Assembly (NCBI GenBank): GCA_040388985.1 | Contig: JAZKAU010000002.1 | Location: 247,642 to 311,641 of the forward strand | Source of the DNA: Patescibacteria group bacterium | GTDB lineage: Bacteria; Patescibacteriota; Minisyncoccia; Phycocordibacterales; Phycocordibacteraceae | Reading direction: 5' to 3' | Length of the DNA: 64,000 bases | Shown: positions 4,733 through 60,318 of the stretch, piece after piece | How positions within the stretch are numbered: the stretch's first letter is position 1 | Layout: the number at the start of each line of letters is the position of its first letter | Position numbers and translations under genes: made by a program | Notes under the pieces: generated by a model | Database searches by the model: none | Told to the model about the DNA's origin: nothing | The model's input: the letters and a program-made list of their open reading frames with translations, nothing else

Positions 4733-5434
4733 ATGAAGGAGTTTCTTATTAGTCCTCCATTTGGCAACTTTCTCTCCTTTTCAGGCACAACTTCGATTCG
4801 CGGAACTTTTACGTATAAGAGACGCGGATCGTGGCTCTACAAAATGTGGCGATTTGCAAAGACCGTCCGGCCCATCCCCGAAGGCTGGGTCAACAGCATC
4901 GGTTTCCAGAATCCCGGCATTCACTCAGTGCGGACATACGACCCAAATACGATCTATTCGATCGGTGCTGTAGCTGAGGGTGAATGGGAAAAATTGATTA
5001 ACGTGATTCCCGAATCAGTCAGTCTTGAAATTAATATGGGGTGTCCGAATCTTGATACCCATCCCCGCATACCGGGCCGATGTGTTCAAAGCCTCGTTGC
5101 TAGGCATTCTTTGGTTATTTTTAAACTCACGTATTCGCAAGCAGTTTTGTCAGAAATTGATTTTCTGATTGAGAATGGCGCACGATATCTGCATCTCTTT
5201 AACACCATCCCTAGCTCGCGCGGAGCTGAAAGTGGGAAGCGAGTGCAAGAAGTCGCTCTAAAAGCGATTCGGCAGGTTAAAGATACATACCCTCATGTGA
5301 CTATTGTGGGAGGCGGAGGGATTTACTCACTCGAGGATATCCAACGTTACAAAGAAGCAGGGGCAGCTCATTTTTCACTCGCAAGTATTTTCCTCAATCC
5401 TGTTAAAGCTGCAAAGATACTTAAGCATATTTAG
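4733..5434 (+). CDS. dihydroorotate dehydrogenase-family (PyrD-like) TIM-barrel protein, short form
   Basis: Lower-GC ORF. Motifs NSIGFQNPG (substrate loop, cf. NAMGLPN), NMGCPN (cf. NLSCPN with active-site Cys) and IVGGGGIYSLEDIQRYKEAGA (FMN phosphate-binding GGI). ATG at 4733; the GTG frame starts at 4715. Confidence 0.55.
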   Translation: MKEFLISPPFGNFLSFSGTTSIRGTFTYKRRGSWLYKMWRFAKTVRPIPEGWVNSIGFQNPGIHSVRTYDPNTIYSIGAVAEGEWEKLINVIPESVSLEINMGCPNLDTHPRIPGRCVQSLVARHSLVIFKLTYSQAVLSEIDFLIENGARYLHLFNTIPSSRGAESGKRVQEVALKAIRQVKDTYPHVTIVGGGGIYSLEDIQRYKEAGAAHFSLASIFLNPVKAAKILKHI

Positions 5435-5460
5435 CTGGCCGTCTGAGACGATATTCGAAC
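5432..5460 (+). repeat. 29-bp intergenic repeat, copy A (TAGCTGGCCGTCTGAGACGATATTCGAAC)
   Basis: Starts on the TAG stop of the PyrD-like gene. 27/29 identical to the reverse complement of copy C. Shares a 13-nt 5' block with copy B. Confidence 0.6.
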
Positions 5461-5506
5461 AAATATAATGTTTTAGGGCGCCGACATCTCTGCCGGCGCC
5501 CCTTGG

Positions 5507-6236: not shown

Positions 6237-6270
6237 TAGCTGGCCGTCTCGAGTTCGAATCGTATAGAAC
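6237..6270 (+). repeat. 29-bp repeat family, degenerate copy B
   Basis: TAGCTGGCCGTCTCGAGTTCGAATCGTATAGAAC; shares TAGCTGGCCGTCT and TTCGAAT with copies A and C. Confidence 0.45.
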
Positions 6271-11654: not shown

Positions 11655-11683
11655 GTTCGAATATCGTCCCAGACGGCCAGTAG
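11655..11683 (-). repeat. 29-bp repeat family, copy C (inverted relative to copy A)
   Basis: Reverse complement CTACTGGCCGTCTGGGACGATATTCGAAC, 27/29 identical to copy A. Confidence 0.6.
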
Positions 11684-13505: not shown

Positions 13506-13889
13506 TTAGGCCCGCTTAGAGTCTCCGGCTGGAGTTGGCAGGAAGGCAAGCGACAAGGTCGCAAACGCCAGAGCAACATCCCTGAAGAGGACAGACAGGT
13601 CGGACAGATTGAAGAGCACGATACCCAGAAGAAGGATGGTCATGACTATGGCCGGAACCCGCAGCCGCTTCCCGGAAAGGATCCAGAGGGCAAGGACGAC
13701 TTCGAGCACGCCGAAGGCGTGCAACAGTATCGTGGTATCTATCGGAAGCGCGGACACGAATCGCGGGAAGTAGCTCGCCCAGGAGACCGGGTCACTGATC
13801 GCAGCGATGGGCGGATAGATGAAGGCGAAGGCAACGCCCAGGCGCAGTAGCAGGAATCCGGTCGTGTAGGGAATGGGTGTGGGGGACAT
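13506..13889 (-). CDS. DoxX-family membrane protein
   Basis: Four predicted TM helices and an LLRLGVAFAFIY DoxX-like N-terminus; start MSPTPIPYTTGF at 13889. Confidence 0.55.
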   Translation of the reverse strand: MSPTPIPYTTGFLLLRLGVAFAFIYPPIAAISDPVSWASYFPRFVSALPIDTTILLHAFGVLEVVLALWILSGKRLRVPAIVMTILLLGIVLFNLSDLSVLFRDVALAFATLSLAFLPTPAGDSKRA

Positions 13890-13914
13890 AGGCACGAGCA
13901 ATGATCGATGCTGC

Positions 13915-14455: not shown

Positions 14456-15073
14456 CTACGTCTTGTGCACAACTGCCACGCCTTCGTAATTATAGATAAG
14501 AGGTTCTCCCTTCTCGTGAGAATACGCGGCTTTGGCAAGCATGAAGCCCGATTGTTCGATCAAGGCATGAATGTCTCGATCGTAGTGGCAATTGCCTGTG
14601 AAATGCCGGGTGAGCCAGGTATAGACCTTTTGTGCCGTGTGCTTGAAACGCCGAGGAGATTTTCCATGCTCCATGAAGATGAATCTTCCGCCCGGGCGAA
14701 GTACCCGCCAGACTTCATGAAGCGCTTTCGCCGGATCCTTCACACTGCATAACACCCAGATAGATACGACGGTATCGACCGCATGATCAGGAAGAGGAAT
14801 ATCTTCAGCGCTAGCCTGGAGAAATTCGACACGGACTCCAACCTCCTGCGACTTCGCACGCGCGATCTGGAGCAGCTTCTCTGAAGGTTCAAGCGCATAA
14901 AGCTTAGCGATATCGGAATACAAGGGCAGACTGTATCCGGGCCCCACCCCGATCTCGAGTACAATGCCAGCAGCTTCTGCGATAACCTCTCGTCTGCATT
15001 CTTGCAGCTTCTCGGCACCCATATCCTTTTGCACGAGGTGCGGGATCACGTTTCGCGCGTACCACTTCTTCAT
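14456..15073 (-). CDS. class I SAM-dependent methyltransferase
   Basis: Motif I VLEIGVGPGYSL; post-I acidic residue; VLRPGGRFIFMEH motif. Confidence 0.8.
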   Translation of the reverse strand: MKKWYARNVIPHLVQKDMGAEKLQECRREVIAEAAGIVLEIGVGPGYSLPLYSDIAKLYALEPSEKLLQIARAKSQEVGVRVEFLQASAEDIPLPDHAVDTVVSIWVLCSVKDPAKALHEVWRVLRPGGRFIFMEHGKSPRRFKHTAQKVYTWLTRHFTGNCHYDRDIHALIEQSGFMLAKAAYSHEKGEPLIYNYEGVAVVHKT

Positions 15074-15251: not shown

Positions 15252-18200
15252 ATGACCGTAATTTCCAAGAAGGGGACTCGTGCAGCCCTTTTCGTGAGTT
15301 TCGTTCTCGCATGTTTCTTGTCCCACGCTTCCTTGTCGCAAGCTGCCACCTACTACGTAGACTCGGTCGGGGGAAGCGACGGTAATGCGGGAACATCTAC
15401 CGGCGCGCCATGGCAAACGCTCAGCAAGATCGCCAGCTCGACGTTTAGCGGCGGCGATTCCGTGCTCCTAAAGGCTGGCGACGTATGGCGCGAATCGCTC
15501 ATCTTCCCGTCGTCCGGTACGAGCGGGAATCCGATAACTATCGGCAAATACGGCAGCGGCGCGAACCCGGTCCTGAACGGCTCTGATATCCTGCCGAACG
15601 CGAACTTCACCGTGTATGACGCGCCTAATAACACGTACCAGATCCCGATGACGGTAGAAGGGAACGGCGTCGCCGCAGTCTGGGAGAATGGCGCTCGATT
15701 GACCTTGGCCGTGAGTCTTGCTGCTGCGACCTCCACTCCGGGAAGCGTGTTCTATAACACCACCACGCACATCATGTATGTGCACTCTGCGAATGCCTCG
15801 CCGAATGTCATAACGAACGGGCTCACGTATGAAGGAACGAAGCGCGGAAATGTCGCCTACGATAACGGGAATAGCTGGCTCATCTGGCAGGACCTTGAGA
15901 TAGACAAGGGCTTCACTAACCTCTCTGCTCATCTCGTCGCCGGTAACAATAATATCGTTCGTCGCGTGAACTACTACGAGAATGCGAACCATCACCTGGG
16001 CTTCTACGGGTCAAATAATCTCGGCGAGGACCTGTATGGAGAGAATGATGCCGGAGGCTCGTTCCTCTTCTATGGTCCGTCATCGCACGACAATATATTT
16101 CGCCGCATTCAGTCGGTAGCGAACATCGCCACGCTTGGTCCGGCAGTGCAGGCTCATGGAGGGTCATACAATAATATTGTTGAAGATTCATTACTTACCT
16201 CTTCGGTCACGCCATCGAGCCAGACGGCAGCGATCGGCCTTTCCGCTGACGCAGGCACGTCGATCATCGCGCGCAGGAACAAGATCATGGGCAAATGGAC
16301 GTTCGCATTCGGTATGAATTCCGGGGCAGGAATCAATTCCGAATTCTATGACAACGTGATCGACGGCAGTCAGTTCATCACCCGAGCCATAAGCCTTACC
16401 AGTACCGGGGCGACTGGGTTAAAGATATATAACAACACGTATTACACATCTGGCACTCAGGATTTCTTCGGCGTTGATGCGAGCGGCTCAGCCGAAGTGA
16501 GGAATAATATTGTGTATGTCAGCAGCTCGGGCTTCTACGTGTTCATAGGTTCAGCATCGAGTACCGTCTTCAGTAACAACGAATACTTCGGATCTTCGCG
16601 CACTAACGCATTCGGTGCGGTAAGCGGCAACAAGACATTCTTGCAATGGCAGGCTCTTGGCTACGACACGAATAGCCAGCTGGCGAATCCATTGTTCGTA
16701 AGTTCGACCAGCCCGTCTATTGATCTGAGCTTGCAGCCAGGGTCTCCCGCGATCGATGTCGGGACGAACTTCGGTTCTCCGTATAACCTGGCGCTCTCAG
16801 CATCTACGACATGGCCGTCGAATATCGTAACGTTGAATCAGAACAGTTATGGCGCGGGCTGGGAACGCGGCGCGTATGTCTATGGCGGCGCGAGCGCGCT
16901 CTCGGTCGCCATGGCGTCGCCTTCGAGCGGCGCTACGGTCGCTTCCACGACGACCATCTCTGCGACCGCGACCGCAAGCAGTCCGGCGACCATCTCCTCC
17001 GTGCAGTTCTATCTCGACGGCAGCACGCTCGGCGCGCCGGTGACGAGTACCACGTCCCCGAATACCTACTCATATGCGTGGAACACCACGGCTGCCACCG
17101 ATGGCGCACACACGCTCTATGCCGTCGCCACGAATGATAGTGCGAATGCCACTACTTCTCCGTCCATAAGCGTGACGGTCGATAATACGGCCCCGGTCAT
17201 CTCCGCGATCGCTTCTTCCACCACGCAGACCGGCGCCACGATCACGTGGACCACCAACGAGTCTTCCGATTCCCGCGTCGATTTCGGACTGACCTCGTCG
17301 TATGGGACAGCCTCCAGCTCAGTTGCTACGAGCACCAGTCATTCCATAACGCTTTCGGGTCTCACCGCCTCGACCCTCTATCACTTCCGCGTACAGAGTA
17401 CGGACGCGACGAGTCATGCCGCTACGTCTTCGGACCTCACGTTCACCACTGCCGCAGTACCCGATACCACGCCCCCGATCATCTCTTCTATCGCGTCCTC
17501 GACCACGCAGACTGGCGCGACCGTAACGTGGACTACGAACGAAGGCTCCGACTCCCGCGTCGACTACGGCACCAGCAGTTCCTACGGCACCGCTTCGACT
17601 TCCGCAGCTCTCCTTACGTCACATTCGATCACGTTGAGCGGTCTCACCGCCTCCACGCTGTATCACTTCCGCGTACAGAGTACGGACGCTTCAAGCAATG
17701 TCGCGACCTCGTCAGATCTGACCTTTACCACCACTGCCGTGCCGGATACCACGCCGCCGGTCATATCCTCTATAGCGTCTTCTACGAGCCAGACAAGCGC
17801 GACGATAAGCTGGACGACTAATGAAGCCGCGAACTCCCAGGTTGATTACGGCACTACCGCTTCCTACGGCACGGCATCGACCTCAGCAGCCTTCAGTACG
17901 AGTCATTCGCTGACCCTCACCGGTCTCACCGCGTCGACCCTCTATCATTTCCGTGTGCAAAGCGTCGATGCATCGAGTAATGTGGCGACTTCTTCGGACC
18001 TGACGTTCACGACAACGGCGGTTCCGGACACTACCGCGCCTCTCATATCCGGTATCAGCTCTTCCACCGGTCAGACATCTGCCGTAATCACGTGGACTAC
18101 CGACGAGTCTTCTGATTCCCGCGTCGATTTCGGCGGCAGTTCGTCATACGGCACAGCTTCCACTTCAGCAGCGCTTACGACCTCGCACTCCCTCACCCTC

Positions 18201-19520
18201 ACCGGACTCACCGCATCCACCACCTACCATTTCCGCGTACAGAGTGCCGATGTTGCGAATAATATAGCCACGTCCTCAGACAAGACATTTACCACTGCCG
18301 CAGTACCCGACACCACGCCCCCAGTCATCTCCGCTATAGCGTCCTCAACAACTCAGACCGGCGCTACCATCTCGTGGACCACGAACGAAGCCTCCGACTC
18401 TCGTGTCGACTACGGTCTTACTTCGTCCTATGGAACCGCCTCTACGTCAGCAGCGCTCGGGACCTCTCATTCGATATCGCTATCGGGCCTCACTCCTTCG
18501 ACTACCTATCACTTCCGTATACGAAGTACCGATGCGTCGAGCAACACGGCAACGTCGTCAGCCGCAACCTTCACGACTGCCACGACTCCTGACACTACGG
18601 CTCCCGTAATCTCGGCCATTGCCGCGTCTGCAGACAGTTCTACCGCTACGATCACCTGGAGCACCGACGAGGCAGCTACCTCTCAAGTCGAGTACGGGAC
18701 GAGCACTTCGTATTCCGCGAGCTCTACGCTCGACGCGTCGCTGGTCACGAGCCACTCGGTGACCCTCACCGATTTGGCTTCAGGCATTACATATCACTAT
18801 CGCGTCCTCTCGTCCGACGCATCCGCTAATCTCGCGACTTCGAGCGACCAGACGTTCGACACCGAATCAGCTTCGAGCGGCTCGTCACACCACTCATCCC
18901 ACTCGAATCACGAGAGTTCTGATACGCCTAGCTCACCTGGGGATTCTACGACTACGACCACTACTACTACGAGTACCTCGACTACGACCGCTCCTACCGT
19001 ATCGTTCATCCGTGACCTGACGCTTGGCGCGACGGGAGACGATGTACGCGCGCTGCAGGAGTTCCTCTTAGCGCACGGCTTCTCGATTCCTGCGGGAGCT
19101 ACCGGATACTTCGGACTGCAGACTAAGGCTGCGCTCGCCGCATTCCAGGCAGCGAGTGGCATCGTACCTTCAGTAGGGTACTTCGGACCGCTTACCCGGG
19201 CCTTCATAGCCGCTGGAACGGTATCTCTTCCTGTAACGAATCCTACTGGCACTGCGGTGACCCCTGCAACACCACTTCCAACATCCGTTTCCGGATTCGT
19301 CTTTACACGCCCGCTGTTCCTTGGGGACACCGGTGCCGACGTCATCGCGCTCCAGACCATACTTCAGGCAAAAGGGTTCTATACCTATCCGGTCATTACG
19401 GGATACTACGGACAAGTCACGCTCCAAGCTGTTGCCGACTTCCAGCGCTCCGTCGGACTCGATCATCTGGGATATGTGGGGCCTGCGACGAGGGGAGTAT
19501 TGAATACACTCACGCACTAA
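15252..19520 (+). CDS. giant secreted surface protein: right-handed beta-helix, Ig-like domain, 6 tandem Fn3-like repeats, Thr/Ser linker, 2 C-terminal PG_binding_1 domains
   Basis: 1422 aa with a signal peptide and a beta-helix/pectate-lyase-like N-terminal region. Six ~95-aa repeats (DTTPPVISAIASSTTQTGATITWTT...LYHFRVQS). C-terminal GATGYFGLQTKAALAAFQ and TGYYGQVTLQAVADFQ peptidoglycan-binding repeats. Confidence 0.85.
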   Translation: MTVISKKGTRAALFVSFVLACFLSHASLSQAATYYVDSVGGSDGNAGTSTGAPWQTLSKIASSTFSGGDSVLLKAGDVWRESLIFPSSGTSGNPITIGKYGSGANPVLNGSDILPNANFTVYDAPNNTYQIPMTVEGNGVAAVWENGARLTLAVSLAAATSTPGSVFYNTTTHIMYVHSANASPNVITNGLTYEGTKRGNVAYDNGNSWLIWQDLEIDKGFTNLSAHLVAGNNNIVRRVNYYENANHHLGFYGSNNLGEDLYGENDAGGSFLFYGPSSHDNIFRRIQSVANIATLGPAVQAHGGSYNNIVEDSLLTSSVTPSSQTAAIGLSADAGTSIIARRNKIMGKWTFAFGMNSGAGINSEFYDNVIDGSQFITRAISLTSTGATGLKIYNNTYYTSGTQDFFGVDASGSAEVRNNIVYVSSSGFYVFIGSASSTVFSNNEYFGSSRTNAFGAVSGNKTFLQWQALGYDTNSQLANPLFVSSTSPSIDLSLQPGSPAIDVGTNFGSPYNLALSASTTWPSNIVTLNQNSYGAGWERGAYVYGGASALSVAMASPSSGATVASTTTISATATASSPATISSVQFYLDGSTLGAPVTSTTSPNTYSYAWNTTAATDGAHTLYAVATNDSANATTSPSISVTVDNTAPVISAIASSTTQTGATITWTTNESSDSRVDFGLTSSYGTASSSVATSTSHSITLSGLTASTLYHFRVQSTDATSHAATSSDLTFTTAAVPDTTPPIISSIASSTTQTGATVTWTTNEGSDSRVDYGTSSSYGTASTSAALLTSHSITLSGLTASTLYHFRVQSTDASSNVATSSDLTFTTTAVPDTTPPVISSIASSTSQTSATISWTTNEAANSQVDYGTTASYGTASTSAAFSTSHSLTLTGLTASTLYHFRVQSVDASSNVATSSDLTFTTTAVPDTTAPLISGISSSTGQTSAVITWTTDESSDSRVDFGGSSSYGTASTSAALTTSHSLTLTGLTASTTYHFRVQSADVANNIATSSDKTFTTAAVPDTTPPVISAIASSTTQTGATISWTTNEASDSRVDYGLTSSYGTASTSAALGTSHSISLSGLTPSTTYHFRIRSTDASSNTATSSAATFTTATTPDTTAPVISAIAASADSSTATITWSTDEAATSQVEYGTSTSYSASSTLDASLVTSHSVTLTDLASGITYHYRVLSSDASANLATSSDQTFDTESASSGSSHHSSHSNHESSDTPSSPGDSTTTTTTTTSTSTTTAPTVSFIRDLTLGATGDDVRALQEFLLAHGFSIPAGATGYFGLQTKAALAAFQAASGIVPSVGYFGPLTRAFIAAGTVSLPVTNPTGTAVTPATPLPTSVSGFVFTRPLFLGDTGADVIALQTILQAKGFYTYPVITGYYGQVTLQAVADFQRSVGLDHLGYVGPATRGVLNTLTH
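17181..18870 (+). repeat. ~285-bp tandem repeat x6 inside the giant surface-protein gene (Fn3-like module array)
   Basis: Near-identical amino-acid blocks, with near-identical DNA between adjacent copies. Confidence 0.8.
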
Positions 19521-25773: not shown

Positions 25774-26067
25774 ATGAACCTTTCCCGTAACACCATCGTC
25801 CTCATCATCTGCCTCGTCATCGTGCTTGGCGGCGCCTTCTACTATTTCTTCTTCTACAATAGCGGCACTGAACCTGCGCTCACGAGCGACAATACGCCGG
25901 CGAGCGACGCAGAGCTTTCATTCATCGCGCTCGTGAGCAAGCTCGACCCCATCGTCTTCGACACCTCGCTCCTTGCAGACCCCCGCTTCACCACAAGACA
26001 GGATATCCGCACGACGGTGGTTCCTGAGACCAAGGGCAGAACCGATCCCTTCGCTCCTATCCGCTGA
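25774..26067 (+). CDS. small membrane protein (pilus-operon associated)
   Basis: 97-aa ORF with an N-terminal TM helix. Confidence 0.4.
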   Translation: MNLSRNTIVLIICLVIVLGGAFYYFFFYNSGTEPALTSDNTPASDAELSFIALVSKLDPIVFDTSLLADPRFTTRQDIRTTVVPETKGRTDPFAPIR

Positions 26068-26139
26068 GCTTCCTGAAATTCCCCAACCTGCTTTGCCCGC
26101 GCTATCGCTCGAATCCTCACCGTACACCTGAGTACGCCT

Positions 26140-26241
26140 CGGATTCTCACCACAAGGGTACTTCTTATTTCCACTCCCTTCGGTCGTGGAAATAATGTTT
26201 CGCTCTGCTCCGCCTCGCATCTCGGGTTTTTCAGAAACCTC
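26140..26241 (+). repeat. structured intergenic element R1 (candidate ncRNA or MITE); paralogue at 36296-36450
   Basis: Shares blocks CACCACAAGG, GTACTTC, TTCGCT, CTGCTCCGCCTC and ATCTCGGGTTTTTCAGAAACCTC with R2. Hairpin TTATTTCCAC...GTGGAAATAATG covaries with the R2 hairpin. Confidence 0.4.
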
Positions 26242-26310
26242 AGAAAGAAATGGGGGGTAAGTGTCGTTTTCGAATCCTAAAAACATAGTCAGAGTGGTAG
26301 ACTGGAGAGC

Positions 26311-27006
26311 ATGAGTGAAGGAGGCCCCACAGTACTCAGTGCAACCTCAAAACGAATGCTAGGTATCCGTGACTTTGAGCCAATCCCCTTAGACACAAAG
26401 GCAAAACTACTAGGCAGTAACGAACGCATAATGGCGCTTCAGGCTGTAGATACGACAACCATGCCTCGTGGCCCCGTACGTGAGATGAAACGTTCAATTG
26501 TTCTGGAAATTCTGAAGCAAGGACTTCTCTCAACTGAGGTCCTGAGAAATAATCCGATGGTCTATATAGGCTCAGGAACAGATGTCGAATATCCGTTAGC
26601 TCTTGGCGGAAGACATATCATTATGGTTGATCCTGTCTTTGAGCAGCAGCAAGCGATACAAGAAGTCATCGATAGAATCGAGCATCTAATCGCGAAAGGT
26701 ATGGAGAAGGATCGAAATCGGCTAACATTTGATTTTGACTTCGGAGAGGGTAGCGAACAAGTAGTCGTTGAGCTGGTACCTAGTGCCTATGATGCTGACC
26801 TTGGCAGCGAAGGGTACGCCCTGCCTGATGCGATAGGGCACCTAGTCCTATATGCCAGCCAGGGGCCAACCGGTGCTGTATCAATAAGCCAAGAGATGAA
26901 ATCAAAGATAGTAGAGAATGGTGCAATCATTCAGGAAGCCGATATCACAAAAATTGCAAGGAATCGTCAAGAGGAACGTATCAGTCTCGGGAAGAGTCAC
27001 CTATAA
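26311..27006 (+). CDS. hypothetical protein (possible Rossmann/methyltransferase-like fold)
   Basis: Lower-GC 231-aa ORF. VYIGSGTDVEYPLALGGRHIIMVDP resembles SAM-MTase motif I. Confidence 0.5.
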   Translation: MSEGGPTVLSATSKRMLGIRDFEPIPLDTKAKLLGSNERIMALQAVDTTTMPRGPVREMKRSIVLEILKQGLLSTEVLRNNPMVYIGSGTDVEYPLALGGRHIIMVDPVFEQQQAIQEVIDRIEHLIAKGMEKDRNRLTFDFDFGEGSEQVVVELVPSAYDADLGSEGYALPDAIGHLVLYASQGPTGAVSISQEMKSKIVENGAIIQEADITKIARNRQEERISLGKSHL

Positions 27007-31910: not shown

Positions 31911-32357
31911 ATGACACTAGTATCCTCTAAAGCACGACGCGGTCTTTCCGAGGACGCGCGCTCAGGCTTCACCCTCATCGAGCTCCTCGTCGTTATAGCC
32001 ATCATCGGCATCCTCTCGTCGGTCGTGCTGGCTTCGCTCAACACCGCTCGCAATAAGGGTGCAGATGCGGCTATCAAGTCGAACATCAATAACGCGCGCG
32101 CTGCAGCGGAGCTCTACTACGACTCTCAGTCGCCTAACAGCTATACGGGCGTCTGTGCCTCAGCCAGCGGTATCGCCCCTATGGTTACGGGAACGAACAG
32201 TGCCGGAGGTACGGCATCATGTCTTGATACGGGCGGCGCTGCATGGAGACTCTCTTCTGTGCTGAAGGCAGTCTCTCCGACGAGTTATTACTGCGTCGAT
32301 AGCACTGGCGTCTCCAAGATCACTACTACGGCTCCTACCACGACTGCGTGTCCGTAA
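31911..32357 (+). CDS. type IV major pilin (prepilin), paralogue 1
   Basis: Class III signal: leader ...ARSG / FTLIELLVVIAIIGILSSV with E5. Confidence 0.8.
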   Translation: MTLVSSKARRGLSEDARSGFTLIELLVVIAIIGILSSVVLASLNTARNKGADAAIKSNINNARAAAELYYDSQSPNSYTGVCASASGIAPMVTGTNSAGGTASCLDTGGAAWRLSSVLKAVSPTSYYCVDSTGVSKITTTAPTTTACP

Positions 32358-32376
32358 GGATCAGAAGGATACTGTG

Positions 32377-32431
32377 CCGGTGTGCATAGCAAAGGGCGAC
32401 CCGAAGGGTCGCCCTTTGCTATGCACACCGG
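32377..32431. terminator. 25-bp perfect-stem hairpin between the paralogous pilin genes
   Basis: CCGGTGTGCATAGCAAAGGGCGACC cgaag GGTCGCCCTTTGCTATGCACACCGG; no U-tract. Confidence 0.5.
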
Positions 32432-32499
32432 CTACGCCGTCAGTAGGTCGCGTGGCGTATAGTAAAGATATCAGCCGTTAACGGAACGAATGCATTTCT

Positions 32500-32997
32500 A
32501 TGTCCCTATCTAGCCGAAGTAATCAAGCCGGCTTCACCCTCATCGAGCTCCTCGTCGTTATAGCCATCATCGGCATCCTCTCGTCGGTCGTGCTGGCTTC
32601 GCTCAACACCGCTCGCAATAAGGGTGCAGATGCGGCTATCAAGTCGAATCTCGCTAACGCGCGAGCGCAGGCAGAATCGTATTACGACAGCAACACTCTG
32701 AGCTATCTGAATGCCTGCACGTCGGGCGCTACCGCTGCCGGCGTGAAGGGTATCTATGACTTCGCCCTCTCTGCCTCGAACTCCGCGGGCATTGCTCTGG
32801 CGAATCTGAACACTACGCTTGGAAACGCTGGCGCGGTCGGTCTCAAGGTGACCTGCCACGCTTCTGCAACGGGATACGCTCTCGAGTCGCCGCTCAAGAC
32901 GGACGCTACGAAGATGTATTGTGTCGACAATCTGGGCTTCAACGGCGTTCAGAATACCGGTCAGTTCCTCGCCGGTAGCGATGTACAGTGTAATTAG
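32500..32997 (+). CDS. type IV major pilin (prepilin), paralogue 2
   Basis: Leader MSLSSRSNQAG / FTLIELLVV. The first ~45 mature residues are identical to paralogue 1. Confidence 0.8.
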   Translation: MSLSSRSNQAGFTLIELLVVIAIIGILSSVVLASLNTARNKGADAAIKSNLANARAQAESYYDSNTLSYLNACTSGATAAGVKGIYDFALSASNSAGIALANLNTTLGNAGAVGLKVTCHASATGYALESPLKTDATKMYCVDNLGFNGVQNTGQFLAGSDVQCN

Positions 32998-36257: not shown

Positions 36258-36295
36258 AGGGTCTCCTGGTTTCCCGACCTGCGGCGTTCATGCTT

Positions 36296-36450
36296 CTGCT
36301 CCGCCTCACCACAAGGCCTACCTCGGAAGGCAGGCACTCCTTATTTGCTAACTCCAGCCCGTCGTAAGCAAATAATGTCGGGTACTTCCAATCTCTAATC
36401 GCTTCGCTCAAGAGATTTAGGTCGTGCATATCGGGTTTTTTAGAAACCTC
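36296..36450 (+). repeat. structured intergenic element R2 (paralogue of R1)
   Basis: CTGCTCCGCCTCACCACAAGG; hairpin TTATTTGCT...AGCAAATAATG; GTACTTCC; TTCGCT; ATATCGGGTTTTTTAGAAACCTC. Confidence 0.4.
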
Positions 36451-36476
36451 TTACGGTGGTTGCCTGCGCGCGGTAG

Positions 36477-38504
<2,028 letters not shown>

Positions 38505-40952: not shown

Positions 40953-41290
40953 AGCGGGGTAGAGGAGTGGTACCTCGGGAGGCTCATCAAAAGGTGACCC
41001 TATCCGGTAACGGGTAGCGGAAAAACTCTCTAAATTGCTGGAATACCGTTAGAGCTTTCTGTGCTACAACGTGATTCGAAAGGGTGAGCGTGAATGCTTG
41101 AAAAACGGAAAGATTCGGCAATCAGCAGCCAAGCCGAGCCCATTCTAACGAATAGGCTCGGAAGGTTCAGAGACTATAATGGGAGGATCCCGCATCTATT
41201 AAGATTTGGGATCATGGTATAGTCCATTCCTGTTGGAAACATCAGGTGTAAAAGAACCTCCAGGCGCCGGTTCAATTCCGGCCCCCGCAA
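40953..41290 (+). tRNA. initiator tRNA-fMet (anticodon CAU) interrupted by a group I intron
   Basis: 5' exon 40953-40987: AGCGGGG-TA-GAGG-AGTGGTA-CCTC-G-GGAGG-CTCAT. 3' exon 41255-41290: AA-CCTCC-AGGC-GCCGG-TTCAATT-CCGGC-CCCCGCA-A. Very close to the E. coli tRNA-fMet 3' end. 1:72 mismatch (A1xA72). Confidence 0.8.
40988..41254 (+). ncRNA. group I intron (267 nt) in the tRNA-fMet anticodon loop
   Basis: 5' splice site after U36 with an internal guide GGUGA pairing the exon CUCAU. Omega-G at 41254. Core motifs P (AATTGCTGGAA, 41033), Q (AATCAGCAGCC, 41119), R (GTTCAGAGACTA, 41165), S (GGTATAGTCC, 41216). Confidence 0.8.
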
Positions 41291-41358
41291 CACGGTTGTG
41301 ATAGTGGAACCAAGACCGGTTCCCCTCAGAGATTAGTTCAGTACCGGTCCGAGTCAAT

Positions 41359-41392
41359 GCAGAGAAAGGCGCCGAGAGGCGCCTTTCTCTGC
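41359..41392 (+). terminator. 15-bp stem hairpin with GAGA tetraloop downstream of tRNA-fMet
   Basis: GCAGAGAAAGGCGCC gaga GGCGCCTTTCTCTGC. Confidence 0.5.
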
Positions 41393-41429: not shown

Positions 41430-43988
41430 ATGCCCAATCTTCTTGTTCTTTCAGGGCTACAAAAGAAAACTTCCGCGTTCGTAGTGGTATGTATATTCGT
41501 TTGTGCTTTTCCCGTCTCCTTGGTGCACGCGGCTTCGGTGCCAGTGGTCGGATTCAATAACCAGCCGAGCCAGACATCCGATACAGCCGTTACTATAGAT
41601 GTTCATATCAATGATACTGAAAGCGATCCGTCCTCTATTTCCATTCGCTATTCGCTTGACGGGGGAAATATCTGGCACGATGCCATGCACCTTTCCGGCG
41701 CTTCTTTTCCCATATCAGGCAATAGCGTTACTGGAATAACGACTTATGGCGATGGTCCGAATAACCGTTCGAACGTAGCATTCCATTGGGATTTCAGCGC
41801 AGAGCCCGGAATCGCGAGCTCTACCGAGACGGAAATAGAAGTGACTCCCCATGATGCTTCTGGCGACGGCGAACCGATCGTGTCAGATCCGTTCATGCTT
41901 ACGGCGCCGACGCCACCAGCCTCACCACCCGTGTTCGCGGAAGACTCAGGAGCGGTGACGGACATCACGCAGACGTCCGTCATCGTGCACTACGACATGA
42001 GCAGTGAAGGTTCTGCTCCGCTCTCGCATTTCGAACTCGATTACGCGAGCGATGCGTATTATCTCGCGCACGCCTCTTACGCGGAACACACGCCCATTAC
42101 GTTCTCGGGAGCATTTGCCGACTCAGGTGCCACTAATGTTACCGGCCTTTCCTGCGGTGCGATGTACCACTTCGCGCAGACGTTCACGAATGGTGACGGA
42201 CAATCCGCGACTTCCACCGATGCGACTTTCACGACAAGCCCATGCGACGGGGGAGGCGATGGCGGAGGAACGCCGTTCACCGAAGGCGATGGTTCGAGCA
42301 ATACACCGTTCATCGTGGATGACTGTACGCAGATTCCGACGATAAACGACGATTTGAGCGCGGCATACCTCCTTGATGCGAACCTCGACTGTCGCGAGAT
42401 GGGTACCGATGTCATGATAGGCGGTTTTGGCATGAATCCCTTCACGGGAACGTTCGATGGTGGCGGGCATTCTATTGCCATTGACATAGAGAACGCGGGC
42501 CAGCCAGGCATGGGTCTTTTCCGCTCGCTGTATGGAGCAACCGTGCACGACCTCGCCATAGCGCCTGACAGCATAGTTCTTGGTCAAGATGTAGACGGGA
42601 GCATTGCCGGTTTTGCATATAACTCGACCCTGACGCGCGTGGGATCAGCAGCCTTCGTCGTATCCGCAGCTACGACGCCTCAGTTTCCGCTTGCCGGAAC
42701 GGGCGGACTCGTCGGCGCGCTCTTTAGCTCGCAGATATACGGATCGGAATTCACGGGCATCGCCGCCTCGCCTTTTATCGTCGGTGGCATCGCAGGCCTT
42801 GTCATGAATGATCTTTCTGACGGACCACCGTCATTGATCTCGCGTTCGGATTCGGTCGGAGGTATATATAGCGGACTTTCTGCGGGCGGCGTCGCAGGCT
42901 ATCTCGATGGCGGGTCACAAATCCGTAATAGCTACTCAAGCAGCACGGTGCAGTTCAATGACGAGTTTGCGGGTTCTGATCCGCAGACGGGCGGCTTCGG
43001 CGGCCTTGTAGGCGTCATGGCCAGCGGCATCATATCCCGTAGTTATGCCGCAGGCTCTGTTGCCGCTGGCCCAGACTCAGTATTCTTCCCGTCAGGCGGC
43101 CTTGTCGGTTTCATGGAGTCGCCGGACGCACGTATCGTGCATTCGTTCGCCGCGCCGAACATTACGACTGATGGGGCTCCCGTCGGAGGATTCGTTGGTG
43201 GCGTGAATGAATCGGAAACACCGTTAACAGGGTTATATGATGACTATTTCGACACGCTAAGGACTGAAGAGACCGTGTGTGTTTCCGGCGATACTAGTGC
43301 ACGAGCCGATTGTACGGGCGTAGACGGTAGCGCGAGCGGATACTGGCTCAACACGCATGATACGCCGATAGCGGCATGGAACATTTCTGAAGTGTGGGAT
43401 GTTTCTGGTGAGCATGATGGATTTCCACTCCTTCTCGGATATGCGGGTCCAGAAACAGAAGAATCAGATGCACGCGATTCTGGCGAAGACAGCGTTAGCG
43501 AGGATATTCCTCTTCCTTCGCATCATTCGGGCAGCGCGCCGTCTAAGCGCAGCGTGCTGAGTCGCCTCGACACGTATCTCAAGAATGGAGACAGCAAAGG
43601 CCTGGCGGAGTACGTGCAGCGTAACCAAGGACGTCTCGATCAATATGTCGAACAAGGTCAAGCGCTTCCTCCCGAAGTCGCGTCGCTTCTCAGTATCGGG
43701 CCTGCGGCCGCGCCTGTCGTCGTCGTGACGTATCCGCTTCGGAACCTTCAGAAAGGGATGGCGGGTGGCGATGTGAGCGCGCTCCAGACGCTCCTCATAA
43801 AGGAGGCGGCAGGGTCGGCCGCCTCAGTGCTTGCGCAGACCGGTGCAACGGGTTATTTCGGTCCGCTGACTCAAGCAGCGCTCGCTGAATATCAGAAAGC
43901 GCACGGTATCGTCCCGTCTGCCGGTTACTTCGGTCCGCTCACGCAAGCGTTGATGAAAGCTGCGGGATTGACGGGACTGTGGTGGTAG
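41430..43988 (+). CDS. secreted GLUG-motif repeat surface protein with Fn3-like N-terminal region and C-terminal PG_binding_1 domain
   Basis: 852 aa. Signal peptide. Repeated Gly-rich GGLVG / GGIAGL / GGVAGY / GGFGGLVG blocks (GLUG-like). C-terminal GATGYFGPLTQAALAEYQ. Confidence 0.75.
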   Translation: MPNLLVLSGLQKKTSAFVVVCIFVCAFPVSLVHAASVPVVGFNNQPSQTSDTAVTIDVHINDTESDPSSISIRYSLDGGNIWHDAMHLSGASFPISGNSVTGITTYGDGPNNRSNVAFHWDFSAEPGIASSTETEIEVTPHDASGDGEPIVSDPFMLTAPTPPASPPVFAEDSGAVTDITQTSVIVHYDMSSEGSAPLSHFELDYASDAYYLAHASYAEHTPITFSGAFADSGATNVTGLSCGAMYHFAQTFTNGDGQSATSTDATFTTSPCDGGGDGGGTPFTEGDGSSNTPFIVDDCTQIPTINDDLSAAYLLDANLDCREMGTDVMIGGFGMNPFTGTFDGGGHSIAIDIENAGQPGMGLFRSLYGATVHDLAIAPDSIVLGQDVDGSIAGFAYNSTLTRVGSAAFVVSAATTPQFPLAGTGGLVGALFSSQIYGSEFTGIAASPFIVGGIAGLVMNDLSDGPPSLISRSDSVGGIYSGLSAGGVAGYLDGGSQIRNSYSSSTVQFNDEFAGSDPQTGGFGGLVGVMASGIISRSYAAGSVAAGPDSVFFPSGGLVGFMESPDARIVHSFAAPNITTDGAPVGGFVGGVNESETPLTGLYDDYFDTLRTEETVCVSGDTSARADCTGVDGSASGYWLNTHDTPIAAWNISEVWDVSGEHDGFPLLLGYAGPETEESDARDSGEDSVSEDIPLPSHHSGSAPSKRSVLSRLDTYLKNGDSKGLAEYVQRNQGRLDQYVEQGQALPPEVASLLSIGPAAAPVVVVTYPLRNLQKGMAGGDVSALQTLLIKEAAGSAASVLAQTGATGYFGPLTQAALAEYQKAHGIVPSAGYFGPLTQALMKAAGLTGLWW

Positions 43989-44013
43989 GCCGGTTCAATT
44001 CTGGCCCTCGCTA
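43988..44013 (+). repeat. partial direct copy of the tRNA-fMet 3' end (T-arm plus acceptor); candidate attR-like scar
   Basis: GGCCGGTTCAATTCTGGCCCTCGCTA versus the tRNA GCGCCGGTTCAATTCCGGCCCCCGCAA (24/27). Confidence 0.55.
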
Positions 44014-53538: not shown

Positions 53539-54285
53539 ATGCGTCAGTCTCGTCTCATCATGGGCATGCCCACCTTCATCGAGATCGCCGAACCACATGT
53601 CTCGCAGGAATCCTATGAGCAGGTCTTCAACTACCTCACTTCTATCGATGAGCGATTCAGTACGTATAAGCCGGAGAGCGAGATCTCGCGCATCAATAGG
53701 GGAGAGATAGCCGAAGACGCCTATAGCGGCGATATGCGAGAGATATTCCGTCTTGCAGACGCAACCGCGCGCGCGACGGACGGCTACTTCGACATCCGGA
53801 AACCGGACGGTACCCTCGATCCGTCGGGAGTCGTCAAAGGATGGGCTATACAGAAAGCATCGGAACTCCTTGAACGCATGGGGCATGAGAACTTTTATAT
53901 CGAAGTCGCGGGCGACGTCCAGACAAAGGGCGTAGACGCGCATGGCAGGGATTGGACCATCGGCATACGGAGTCCCTTCACCGCAGACGAGATAGTGAAG
54001 GTAATCACGCCGCAGGGACAGGGAGTAGCGACTTCCGGAACATACATACGCGGAGAACATATCTATGACCCCCATACCGGTGTGTCGCCTGAGGCCTTCG
54101 TAAGTCTCACGGTGGTGGGGCCGGATATCTACGAAGCTGATCGGTTCGCGACCGCAGCCTTTGCCATGGGTCCCCGCGGCCTCGCCTTCCTCGAGAGCCT
54201 TCCGGGACTTGAGGCGTACGCCATCGACCCGAAGGGTGTGGCAACCATGACGAGCGGCTTCGAAGCCCTAACCCTACGCCCATGA
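53539..54285 (+). CDS. apbE: FAD:protein FMN transferase (ApbE family)
   Basis: TSIDERFSTYKPESEISRINRGEI, GWAIQKASELL, GDV...TSGTY ApbE motifs; 248 aa, shorter than typical. Confidence 0.7.
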   Translation: MRQSRLIMGMPTFIEIAEPHVSQESYEQVFNYLTSIDERFSTYKPESEISRINRGEIAEDAYSGDMREIFRLADATARATDGYFDIRKPDGTLDPSGVVKGWAIQKASELLERMGHENFYIEVAGDVQTKGVDAHGRDWTIGIRSPFTADEIVKVITPQGQGVATSGTYIRGEHIYDPHTGVSPEAFVSLTVVGPDIYEADRFATAAFAMGPRGLAFLESLPGLEAYAIDPKGVATMTSGFEALTLRP

Positions 54286-57439: not shown

Positions 57440-57454
57440 CGCTCTTAAGTATAC

Positions 57455-57498
57455 GACATTGTTTTCTTATGAGTCCTCGAATTAGAAAACAAGAAGTG
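57455..57498 (+). repeat. 44-bp perfect direct repeat, copy 1; contains 9-bp inverted repeat TTGTTTTCT/AGAAAACAA
   Basis: GACATTGTTTTCTTATGAGTCCTCGAATTAGAAAACAAGAAGTG. Confidence 0.85.
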
Positions 57499-57569
57499 CC
57501 CTTTGTGGTGCGCGACCTAGAATCGGTTATGAACAAAGTGAATTAGCGATTCGGAAGTACTCCTGTGGT

Positions 57570-57613
57570 GACATTGTTTTCTTATGAGTCCTCGAATTAG
57601 AAAACAAGAAGTG
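57570..57613 (+). repeat. 44-bp perfect direct repeat, copy 2 (115-bp period)
   Basis: Identical 44-mer; upstream of the DUF3494 gene. Confidence 0.85.
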
Positions 57614-57761
57614 TCCGACAACACGCGCCTACACCCTGTAGGAATCAGTAGATACGAAGAGTATGCCTTCAGAATCTCGTATAGATGCATGCGTCGCATA
57701 CGTATGAGATTGACATGGTATCCTTATACCTATCACCATCCTTTCCTTACGAAGCCTCAAG

Positions 57762-60241: not shown

Positions 60242-60263
60242 GAGATAGTAGAAGAACACAAAA

Positions 60264-60296
60264 GAAACAGGGCCCGCCGAAGGCGGGCCCTGTTTC
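60264..60296. terminator. bidirectional rho-independent terminator
   Basis: GAAACAGGGCCCGCC gaa GGCGGGCCCTGTTTC with T-rich tails on both strands. Confidence 0.8.
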
Positions 60297-60318
60297 TTTT
60301 GTGTTCTTCGAAACGAGA

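Follow-up and report, generated by a model that had tools for sequence, protein, structure and literature searches.

A putative family of hairpin-rich mosaic repeats in Parcubacteria, with features of MITE and BIME elements

Three loci, designated R1, R2 and R3, within a 64-kb stretch of Parcubacteria DNA (the window, by which we mean the whole stretch analysed; G+C 55.7%) on balance appear to be copies of an undescribed, non-coding and hairpin-rich mosaic repeat family of MITE/BIME-like type. A complete copy of such an element would measure ~180 nt and consist of two inverted-repeat ends placed around one to three stem-loop modules with ACCAC...GYACTTC linkers. Bacteria of the candidate phyla radiation have tiny genomes and are thought to hold little repetitive or mobile DNA, and a literature search found no account of a repeat of this kind in Parcubacteria. 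The LigA protein encoded in the window is 100% identical to NCBI MES2225694.1, and R1 and R2 are located in the type IV pilus/ligA/gatCAB region. Table 1 lists the copies, their parts and the neighbouring features.

Table 1. Coordinates of the repeat copies, their modules and adjacent features (window positions, except in the last two rows, which refer to the sequences of two metagenomic relatives)
Feature	Position	Strand	Remarks
R1, full-length copy, 180 nt	26064..26243	+	bounded by inverted repeats; arms 26064-26083 / 26224-26243
R1 5' inverted repeat CTGAGCTTCCTGAAATTCCC	26064..26083	+	holds TGA stop (26065-26067) of upstream 97-aa gene
R1 left hairpin GAATCC...GGATTC (H2-like)	26111..26146	+	15-nt arms, 73% complementary
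R1 H1 unit: CTCACCACAAGGGTACTTC, stem TTATTTCCAC/GTGGAAATAA, then TGTTTCGC	26146..26203	+	55.6 bits, E = 5.5e-12
R1 3' part: TCTGCTCCGCCTC, then terminal block GCATCTCGGGTTTTTCAGAAACCTC (GGTTT/AAACC hairpin)	26204..26241	+	block matches
TAGACT, -10-like box	26298..26303	+	7 nt 5' of ORF231 ATG; outside R1 repeat
ORF231, rare hypothetical gene	26311..27006	+	shares R1's lineage-specific insertion; functional link to R1 not shown
R2, second copy, ~190 nt	36259..36452	+	ends homologous to those of R1; inverted repeats degenerate
R2 extra hairpin H0 GCCTACCTCGGAAGGCAGGC	36316..36335	+	inserted between CACCACAAGG and GCACTCC; also seen in R2 fold
R2 H1 unit, stem TTATTTGCTAAC/GTAAGCAAATAA with A.A mismatch	36322..36383	+	60.6 bits
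R2 H2 unit: ACTTCC, stem AATCTCT/AGAGATT, then TAGGTCGTGCAT	36384..36431	+	19 bits, E = 0.012; nhmmer E = 2.4e-6
R2 terminal block GCATATCGGGTTTTTTAGAAACCTC	36426..36450	+	block match
TAGAAT, -10-like box	36474..36479	+	6 nt 5' of ligA ATG; outside R2 repeat; kept in relatives
R3, tandem H1-H2-H1 array of internal modules	57440..57626	-	64.4, 58.4 and 35.3 bits
L079 unit	16971-17033		71 bits; 30/31 nt identical to R3b linker + 5' arm
L087 unit	17716-17776		22.9 bits; nhmmer E = 7e-8

The first-pass annotation of this DNA had proposed that R1 and R2 have sequence blocks in common, and these blocks lie where it placed them, stand above chance and are never reproduced by shuffled sequences. The 25-nt terminal block GCATNTCGGGTTTTTYAGAAACCTC matches the window twice (26217-26241 and 36426-36450) with 0 matches expected, as does the hairpin pattern CTTATTT-N-AAATAATGT; TCTGCTCCGCCTC is exact in both copies, as is CTCACCACAAGG (0.13 expected), and RYACTYCTTRTTT and AAAYAATGT occur exactly four times each, always within R1, R2 or R3, against ~0.3 expected. 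The compensatory swap described for the central hairpin is also present, R1 carrying TTATTTCCAC/GTGGAAATAA where R2 carries TTATTTGCTAAC/GTAAGCAAATAA. The two copies are real but were delimited too short: R1 spans 26064-26243 and R2 ~36259-36452, and their 5' ends are homologous as well, with the common block TCCTG..TT.CCC.ACCTGC. Similarly, the string given for their 3' ends, ATCGGG..., is exact in R2, whereas R1 has CTCGGG instead.

Terminal inverted repeats bound R1. The 20-nt arms, formed by the 5' block and the 3' terminal block common to R1 and R2, are complementary at 16 of 20 positions (80%), a value that none of 300 dinucleotide shuffles reaches, and the ends read CTGAGC...CTCAG. The predicted fold of R1, at -53.2 kcal/mol, is far more stable than that of shuffled sequences (-35.4 +/- 3.6; z = -4.9), and the arms of its H1 stem, each of 10 nt, are 100% complementary. 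The best 20-nt inverted repeat of R2 pairs at 12 of 20 positions, which is chance level, and the stability of its whole-element fold is not unusual (z = -1.15). Neither R1 (180 nt) nor R2 (~190 nt) is coding, as both hold only spurious overlapping ORFs.

A BLAST comparison for further homologues, carried out as a small-word search of the window, brought up R3, a third locus on the minus strand that had been missed at first pass. R3 lacks the end blocks of R1 and R2 and has a period of 115 nt, with a 47-nt repeat that recurs at that spacing with 98% identity (family D11); it extends over 1.6 periods and is not reported by Tandem Repeats Finder (<2 periods). The hairpin content differs from copy to copy, R1 being composed of an H2-like hairpin plus H1, R2 of H0, H1 and H2, and R3 of H1-H2-H1. 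The rearranged block order that the first-pass annotation described for R1 and R2 is indeed seen, but it corresponds to different phases of a periodic H1/H2 hairpin alternation with an ACCAC/GYACTTC linker, and all units within an array run head to tail in the same direction.

One plan fits eight hairpin units, six from the window and two from other genomes (L079 and L087, see below): ACCAC-RRGG-GYACTTC leads into a stem that has a conserved A.A mismatch, and TGTCG follows. In an alignment of seven units the linker reads ...ACCAC(A)RRGG-GYACTTC and is followed by a 9-pair stem, the A.A mismatch, two further pairs, a loop of 10-11 nt and a tail of the form T(A)G(G)TCG. H1 stems are of the type TTRTTTYCT/AGRAAAYAA and H2 stems of the type GAATCG/CGATTC or AATCTCT/AGAGATT; H2 units thus swap the whole lower H1 stem, yet remain paired. 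With filters off, a covariance model of the unit finds these six units at the three loci of the window, the next match having E = 1.3. Among six H1 units from three genomes, 96.5% of the cells are paired and four pairs are changed on both sides, and the covariation score of 0.316 is not reached by any of 500 shuffles (0.150) and compares with 0.03-0.08 for slid controls. The stems are almost wholly Watson-Crick, with G.U pairs confined to the terminal hairpin and the weak outer helix of 4 bp, such that a strand specificity of the unit is only hinted at. Paralogy, a defined hairpin and compensatory changes, all three proposed at first pass, are backed by these eight units. Reading these changes as a sign of selection on RNA structure is not supported as argued, since the DNA hairpins of REP- and MITE-type repeats are expected to give the same pattern, and compensatory changes alone do not separate an RNA-hairpin from a DNA-hairpin reading.

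The closest relatives by LigA are two metagenomic lineages, L009 (77% identity) and L010 (76%), and the comparison of presence and absence therefore spans a long evolutionary distance. Both relatives keep the gene order pilus operon, ligA, gatCAB, and neither R1 nor R2 is found at the syntenic sites, contrary to what a conserved position would show. The spacer between the last pilin-like gene and ligA measures 29 nt in L009 and 20 nt in L010, compared with 228 nt where R2 is present. From the gene of ~100 aa to pilB there are ~90 nt in the relatives, with R1 and ORF231 both lacking, and the spacer is orthologous in its pilB-proximal part. Alignment with these syntenic relatives, 76-77% identical in LigA, indicates that R1 (together with ORF231) and R2 are insertions into intergenic spacers. 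The 97-aa protein encoded upstream of R1 ends ...DPFAPIR, and its orthologues extend eight (L009) or six (L010) residues further; as judged from this alignment, R1 is inserted into the last codons of the upstream pilus-operon gene, from which it removed 6-8 codons and to which it gave the stop. No target-site duplication is evident, in that flanking direct repeats were not found at R1, R2 or R3.

Logan k-mer contigs stop inside R1 (26206) and R3 (~57484 and ~57584), as expected because repeats break k-mer assemblies, and these breaks hint at further copies in the genome. Three loci were found in the ~70 kb of genome covered, with no further copy in the 6.5 kb adjoining one side of the window. 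The exact terminal-block pattern has five matches in a collection of species genomes, all in unrelated taxa and at chance level, and none in JGI metagenomes or viral contigs; in viral contigs the hairpin pattern has 38 matches, all of them AT-rich chance ones lacking a stem extension, and the linker pattern has none. By blastn, R2 has no match among plasmids and R3 none among phages. The six copies of GGGTACTTC in the window were considered as a signal of the family and set aside, as the four extra sites fall in coding or decayed-coding-like sequence. Other repeats and gene remnants were noted in passing. A second small repeat, CTGGCCGTCTGAGACGATATTCGAAC, occupies three intergenic spots (5435-5460, ~6241-6265 and 11655-11680), one of them inverted; coding repeats comprise five in-frame 282-nt tandem repeats (17181-18608) within an ORF of 1422 aa, a pilin gene segment present in duplicate at 31965-32688 (159 nt, 91%) and a 122-nt segment common to the 3' ends of three large ORFs (at 19092, 43839 and 61664). 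Four regions (4974-5506, 13580-13914, 14539-14739 and 54076-54281; G+C 0.46-0.65) are devoid of a long ORF and were read as decayed or frameshifted coding sequence.

The genes downstream of R1, R2 and R3 are, respectively, ORF231, ligA and a histidine phosphatase gene, which are mutually unrelated, and all three copies are co-directional with them. R1 and R2 begin 0-7 nt past a stop codon from which no terminator separates them, and no sigma-70-like promoter or terminator common to the three copies was found. DnaA boxes and roles of the repeat as promoter or terminator were considered and do not fit. Elsewhere in the window, perfect long palindromes follow genes at 32376-32432 and 60251-60309 (arms of 27 and 28 nt, 3-nt loops); from their sequence these look like bidirectional terminators. 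Most genes in the window have a TAnAnT box 5-10 nt 5' of the start codon and no Shine-Dalgarno sequence (e.g. at 26298, 36474, 27119, 41412 and 9332), a combination which suggests that the mRNAs may be leaderless; the GGTAGAAT box preceding ligA is conserved in L009 and L010. The family of ORF231 numbers 18 homologues among 5.8 billion proteins and has no Pfam domain, and a Rossmann-like IGSGTD...IIMVD motif was recognized by eye. In other Parcubacteria the homologues adjoin YcaO or radical SAM genes, and CYTH/HisKA is a further context of the family. ORF231 was rejected as a partner protein of the repeat, since the homologues examined sit in varied contexts with no repeat unit nearby. The sole exception among these contigs, L050, starts with CTCTTACG, which is the sequence at the 3' edge of R2; this match is only suggestive of a link between the ORF231 family and the repeat.

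When the LigA neighbourhoods of 80 metagenomic relatives were surveyed (~1 Mb in total), only two loci with the unit came up, in L079 and L087, whose LigA proteins are 54% and 53% identical to that of the window and 59% identical to each other. Each of these two units has tRNA-Asp on one side and tRNA-Thr(GGT) on the other, in opposite orientations relative to these tRNAs. In L087 the unit stands between 24-nt direct repeats (92% identical), one of them formed by the tRNA-Thr 3' end. The bracketed segment of ~158 nt has no integrase and also holds an inverted 11-nt copy of the T-arm. In L079, a degenerate tRNA-Asp 3' end (family D2) comes after the unit. Duplicates of the tRNA-Asp 3' end are spaced 184 nt apart in L079 and 180 nt in L073, approximately the length of R1, and these two segments are without the hairpin unit. 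Viewed together as an observation in its own right, a second copy of a tRNA 3' end (tRNA-Asp or tRNA-Thr) stands 180-184 nt downstream of the first in three Parcubacteria, at L073:8518-8880, L079:16213-16418 and L087:17685-17890; some of these three segments hold an inverted T-arm copy, the L087 segment alone holds the hairpin unit, and from their layout they resemble miniature insertions arranged in tandem at the 3' ends of tRNAs.

The window copies R1-R3 are not located at tRNA genes. The first-pass annotation had reported that a motif of the repeat, CTCTGCTCCG, recurs after a tRNA gene; this 10-mer, at 41387, is at chance level (two matches vs 0.27 expected, a count reached in 2 of 100 shuffles), R2 reads TTCTGCTCCG where the motif had been claimed, and no other module lies near 41387. 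That part of the window is noteworthy for other reasons. A tRNA-Met(CAT) gene with a group I intron occupies 40953-41291 on the plus strand (RF00028, 70 bits, 40975-41246), for which ARAGORN makes no tRNA call, and a 23-nt copy (21/23) of its 3' end (41266-41288) is found at 43989-44011, directly after an 852-aa peptidoglycan-binding ORF (41430-43988). To judge from the sequence, these att-like direct repeats around ~2.7 kb look as they would after integration into a tRNA gene.

How might the repeat have come to occupy these sites? The first-pass annotation had offered two options, a new non-coding RNA or a MITE, of which a MITE-like element is favoured here and a dedicated RNA disfavoured. 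We lean to the MITE-like reading on account of the inverted repeats of R1, the truncation of the upstream gene, the absence of copies from relatives, the mosaic and tandem build, the assembly breaks and, in L087, the position of the unit between duplicates of a tRNA-Thr 3' end. On this reading, an enzyme whose gene lies elsewhere would have mobilised or recombined the copies at the DNA level. Among window ORFs with precomputed Pfam calls and those scanned here, none was found to encode a transposase, an integrase or a reverse transcriptase. Such an enzyme may recognize the hairpin together with its conserved flanks and the A.A mismatch, and stems would then be kept paired via compensatory changes because the enzyme would require the hairpin. 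Once inserted, copies would be passively co-transcribed with neighbouring genes. REP elements of Escherichia coli protect or insulate mRNA 3' ends, and by analogy the stem-loops could protect the 3' end of the upstream mRNA or set it apart from the leaderless promoter that follows. Counter to a mobile element, R1 and R2 have no target-site duplication, the inverted repeats and fold stability of R2 are unexceptional, all three window copies share the direction of their downstream genes, with outer-helix G.U pairs as a strand-specific RNA would have, and the cores of R3b and the L079 unit are identical at 30 of 31 nt although the LigA proteins are only ~54% identical, an identity that a constrained functional RNA explains as easily as recent transfer.

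The latter observation leads to the main rival reading, which we consider possible but improbable, namely that the copies are a structured RNA family, be it of sibling small RNAs or of mRNA elements acting in cis, whose paralogues are kept by selection on RNA. The functional unit would consist of the hairpin together with the flanking ACCAC/GYACUUC and UGUCG, acting for example as a protein-binding or tRNA-3'-end-like minihelix. Compensatory changes, the A.A mismatch and the conserved single-stranded flanks agree with such a role, as does the strong conservation of the unit across lineages at ~54-59% LigA identity, and pairing of the terminal hairpin and of the G.U positions in the outer helix is possible on the given strand only. 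A search with the Rfam 15 covariance models, suggested at first pass, gives no family match for any of R1-R3, whether at gathering score or at E <= 10, however, and the number and order of hairpins differ among copies, with no promoter or terminator in common. Every window copy is co-oriented with its downstream gene, but these genes (ORF231, ligA, histidine phosphatase) are unrelated; likewise the unit lies between tRNA-Asp and tRNA-Thr(GGT) in both L079 and L087, but its orientation to the flanking tRNAs is opposite. Absence of R1 and R2 from the syntenic sites of the nearest relatives and truncation of a gene by R1 also speak against a maintained RNA and are features of the MITE/BIME-like family preferred here.

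The tRNA context of L079 and L087 raises two further readings. It is doubtful, though conceivable, that the conserved unit is the functional RNA or ssDNA module of ~180-nt miniature elements that occur Parcubacteria-wide and home to tRNA 3' ends and gene ends; if true, the unit would be either a small mobile system of a new kind, in genomes that are reduced, or an RNA that such a system carries and that mimics tRNA ends. We attach slightly less credence still to the notion that the repeats are decayed tRNA-derived DNA, i.e. scars or miniature derivatives of tRNA-3'-end integrating elements, composed partly of tRNA fragments and dispersed by recombination. The 24-nt tRNA-Thr 3'-end duplicates and inverted 11-nt T-arm copy of L087, and the degenerate tRNA-end copy after the L079 unit, would fit this origin, but the window copies lie away from tRNA genes; the tRNA-Asp 3'-end duplicates at 184 nt (L079) and 180 nt (L073) match the length of R1, but these segments do not contain the hairpin unit. 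ACCA is present in every unit and several stretches resemble the T-loop-to-3'-end portion of tRNAs (e.g. TCGAATCCTCACCGTACACC), whereas the similarity of R1-R3 to 63 Parcubacteria tRNAs does not exceed that of shuffled controls (best scores 12-14, null maximum 12.2-12.8, sd 1.4-1.5) and Rfam tRNA models give no match even with lax filters. Finally, mere duplication noise, in which short blocks were copied between spacers by chance recombination with neither selection nor mobility, is highly implausible despite the small number of loci (three) and the unexceptional stability of R2, as the units recur in unrelated genomes, stems remain paired through two-sided changes and shuffles never reach the block matches.

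If the MITE/BIME-like reading is correct, a structured repeat family in bacteria of the candidate phyla radiation would mark recent insertions and explain where metagenome assemblies of these bacteria break. It would also illustrate how gene ends can be remodelled by such insertions, the pilus-operon gene described here having lost 6-8 codons, and the repeat provides a concrete motif with which to seek the enzyme that moves it. If instead the hairpin unit acts as an RNA, it would constitute a new RNA family conserved across distant Parcubacteria.

Comparison with known systems sets several candidates aside. Integron attC sites carry the core sequences RYYYAAC ... GTTRRRY, with the gene for an integron integrase close by, whereas R1 ends CTGAGC...CTCAG and no integrase was found among the window ORFs scanned. 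The RNAs of type III toxin-antitoxin systems consist of near-identical short tandem repeats directly 5' of a ToxN/AbiQ-type toxin gene; here the copies precede ORF231, ligA and a histidine phosphatase gene, and R3 alone is tandem, over 1.6 periods. TIGR arrays, which operate with Tas proteins and are found in Parcubacteria and phages, have box C/D motifs, two spacers per loop and an adjacent Nop-domain Tas gene (PMC12045711). They resemble the present repeats as arrays of hairpin units in candidate-phyla-radiation genomes, but R1-R3 have no box C/D (no TGATGA), their 10-11-nt loops are too short for two spacers, and no Nop-domain gene is nearby, the neighbouring genes encoding other Pfam domains. 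Integrative elements that duplicate an att site at tRNA 3' ends find a parallel in the 24-nt tRNA-Thr repeats of L087 and in the tRNA-end duplications spaced ~180 nt in L073 and L079; in contrast to such elements, the L087 segment is only ~158 nt long and has no integrase, and the window copies are neither at tRNAs nor bordered by flanking repeats.

The closer counterparts are miniature and palindromic repeats. Bacterial MITEs that fold into hairpins include the Correia elements of Neisseria, the ERIC/IRU elements of enterobacteria, the pneumococcal RUP elements and the Rickettsia palindromic elements. By description, sequences not being compared, R1 and R2 belong with these in being non-coding and of the ~100-200-nt class, in the terminal inverted repeats of R1, in their dispersal through intergenic DNA and gene ends, where a copy can give a stop codon, in their presence or absence between relatives, and in a predicted transcript that folds into a stable stem-loop. 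They differ in that R1-R3 have no TA or other short target duplication, the inverted repeats of R2 are decayed, two hairpin types follow one another head to tail in variable series in the interior, and the repeats have no known parent insertion sequence. REP elements and their composite BIMEs, found in enterobacteria and pseudomonads and mobilised by RAYT transposases, carry GTAG at the 5' foot and occur as inverted unit pairs. The units described here are instead arranged head to tail and flanked by GYACTTC and TGTCG, and a RAYT (Y1 transposase) gene was not found among the window ORFs scanned. In other respects the units correspond to REP/BIME: they are extragenic imperfect palindromes of 20-40 nt with covarying stems, they are built into mosaics with short conserved motifs, and they often lie just past stop codons between co-directional genes; the role established for REP elements, the stabilization of mRNA 3' ends, is a plausible analogue for what this repeat may do.
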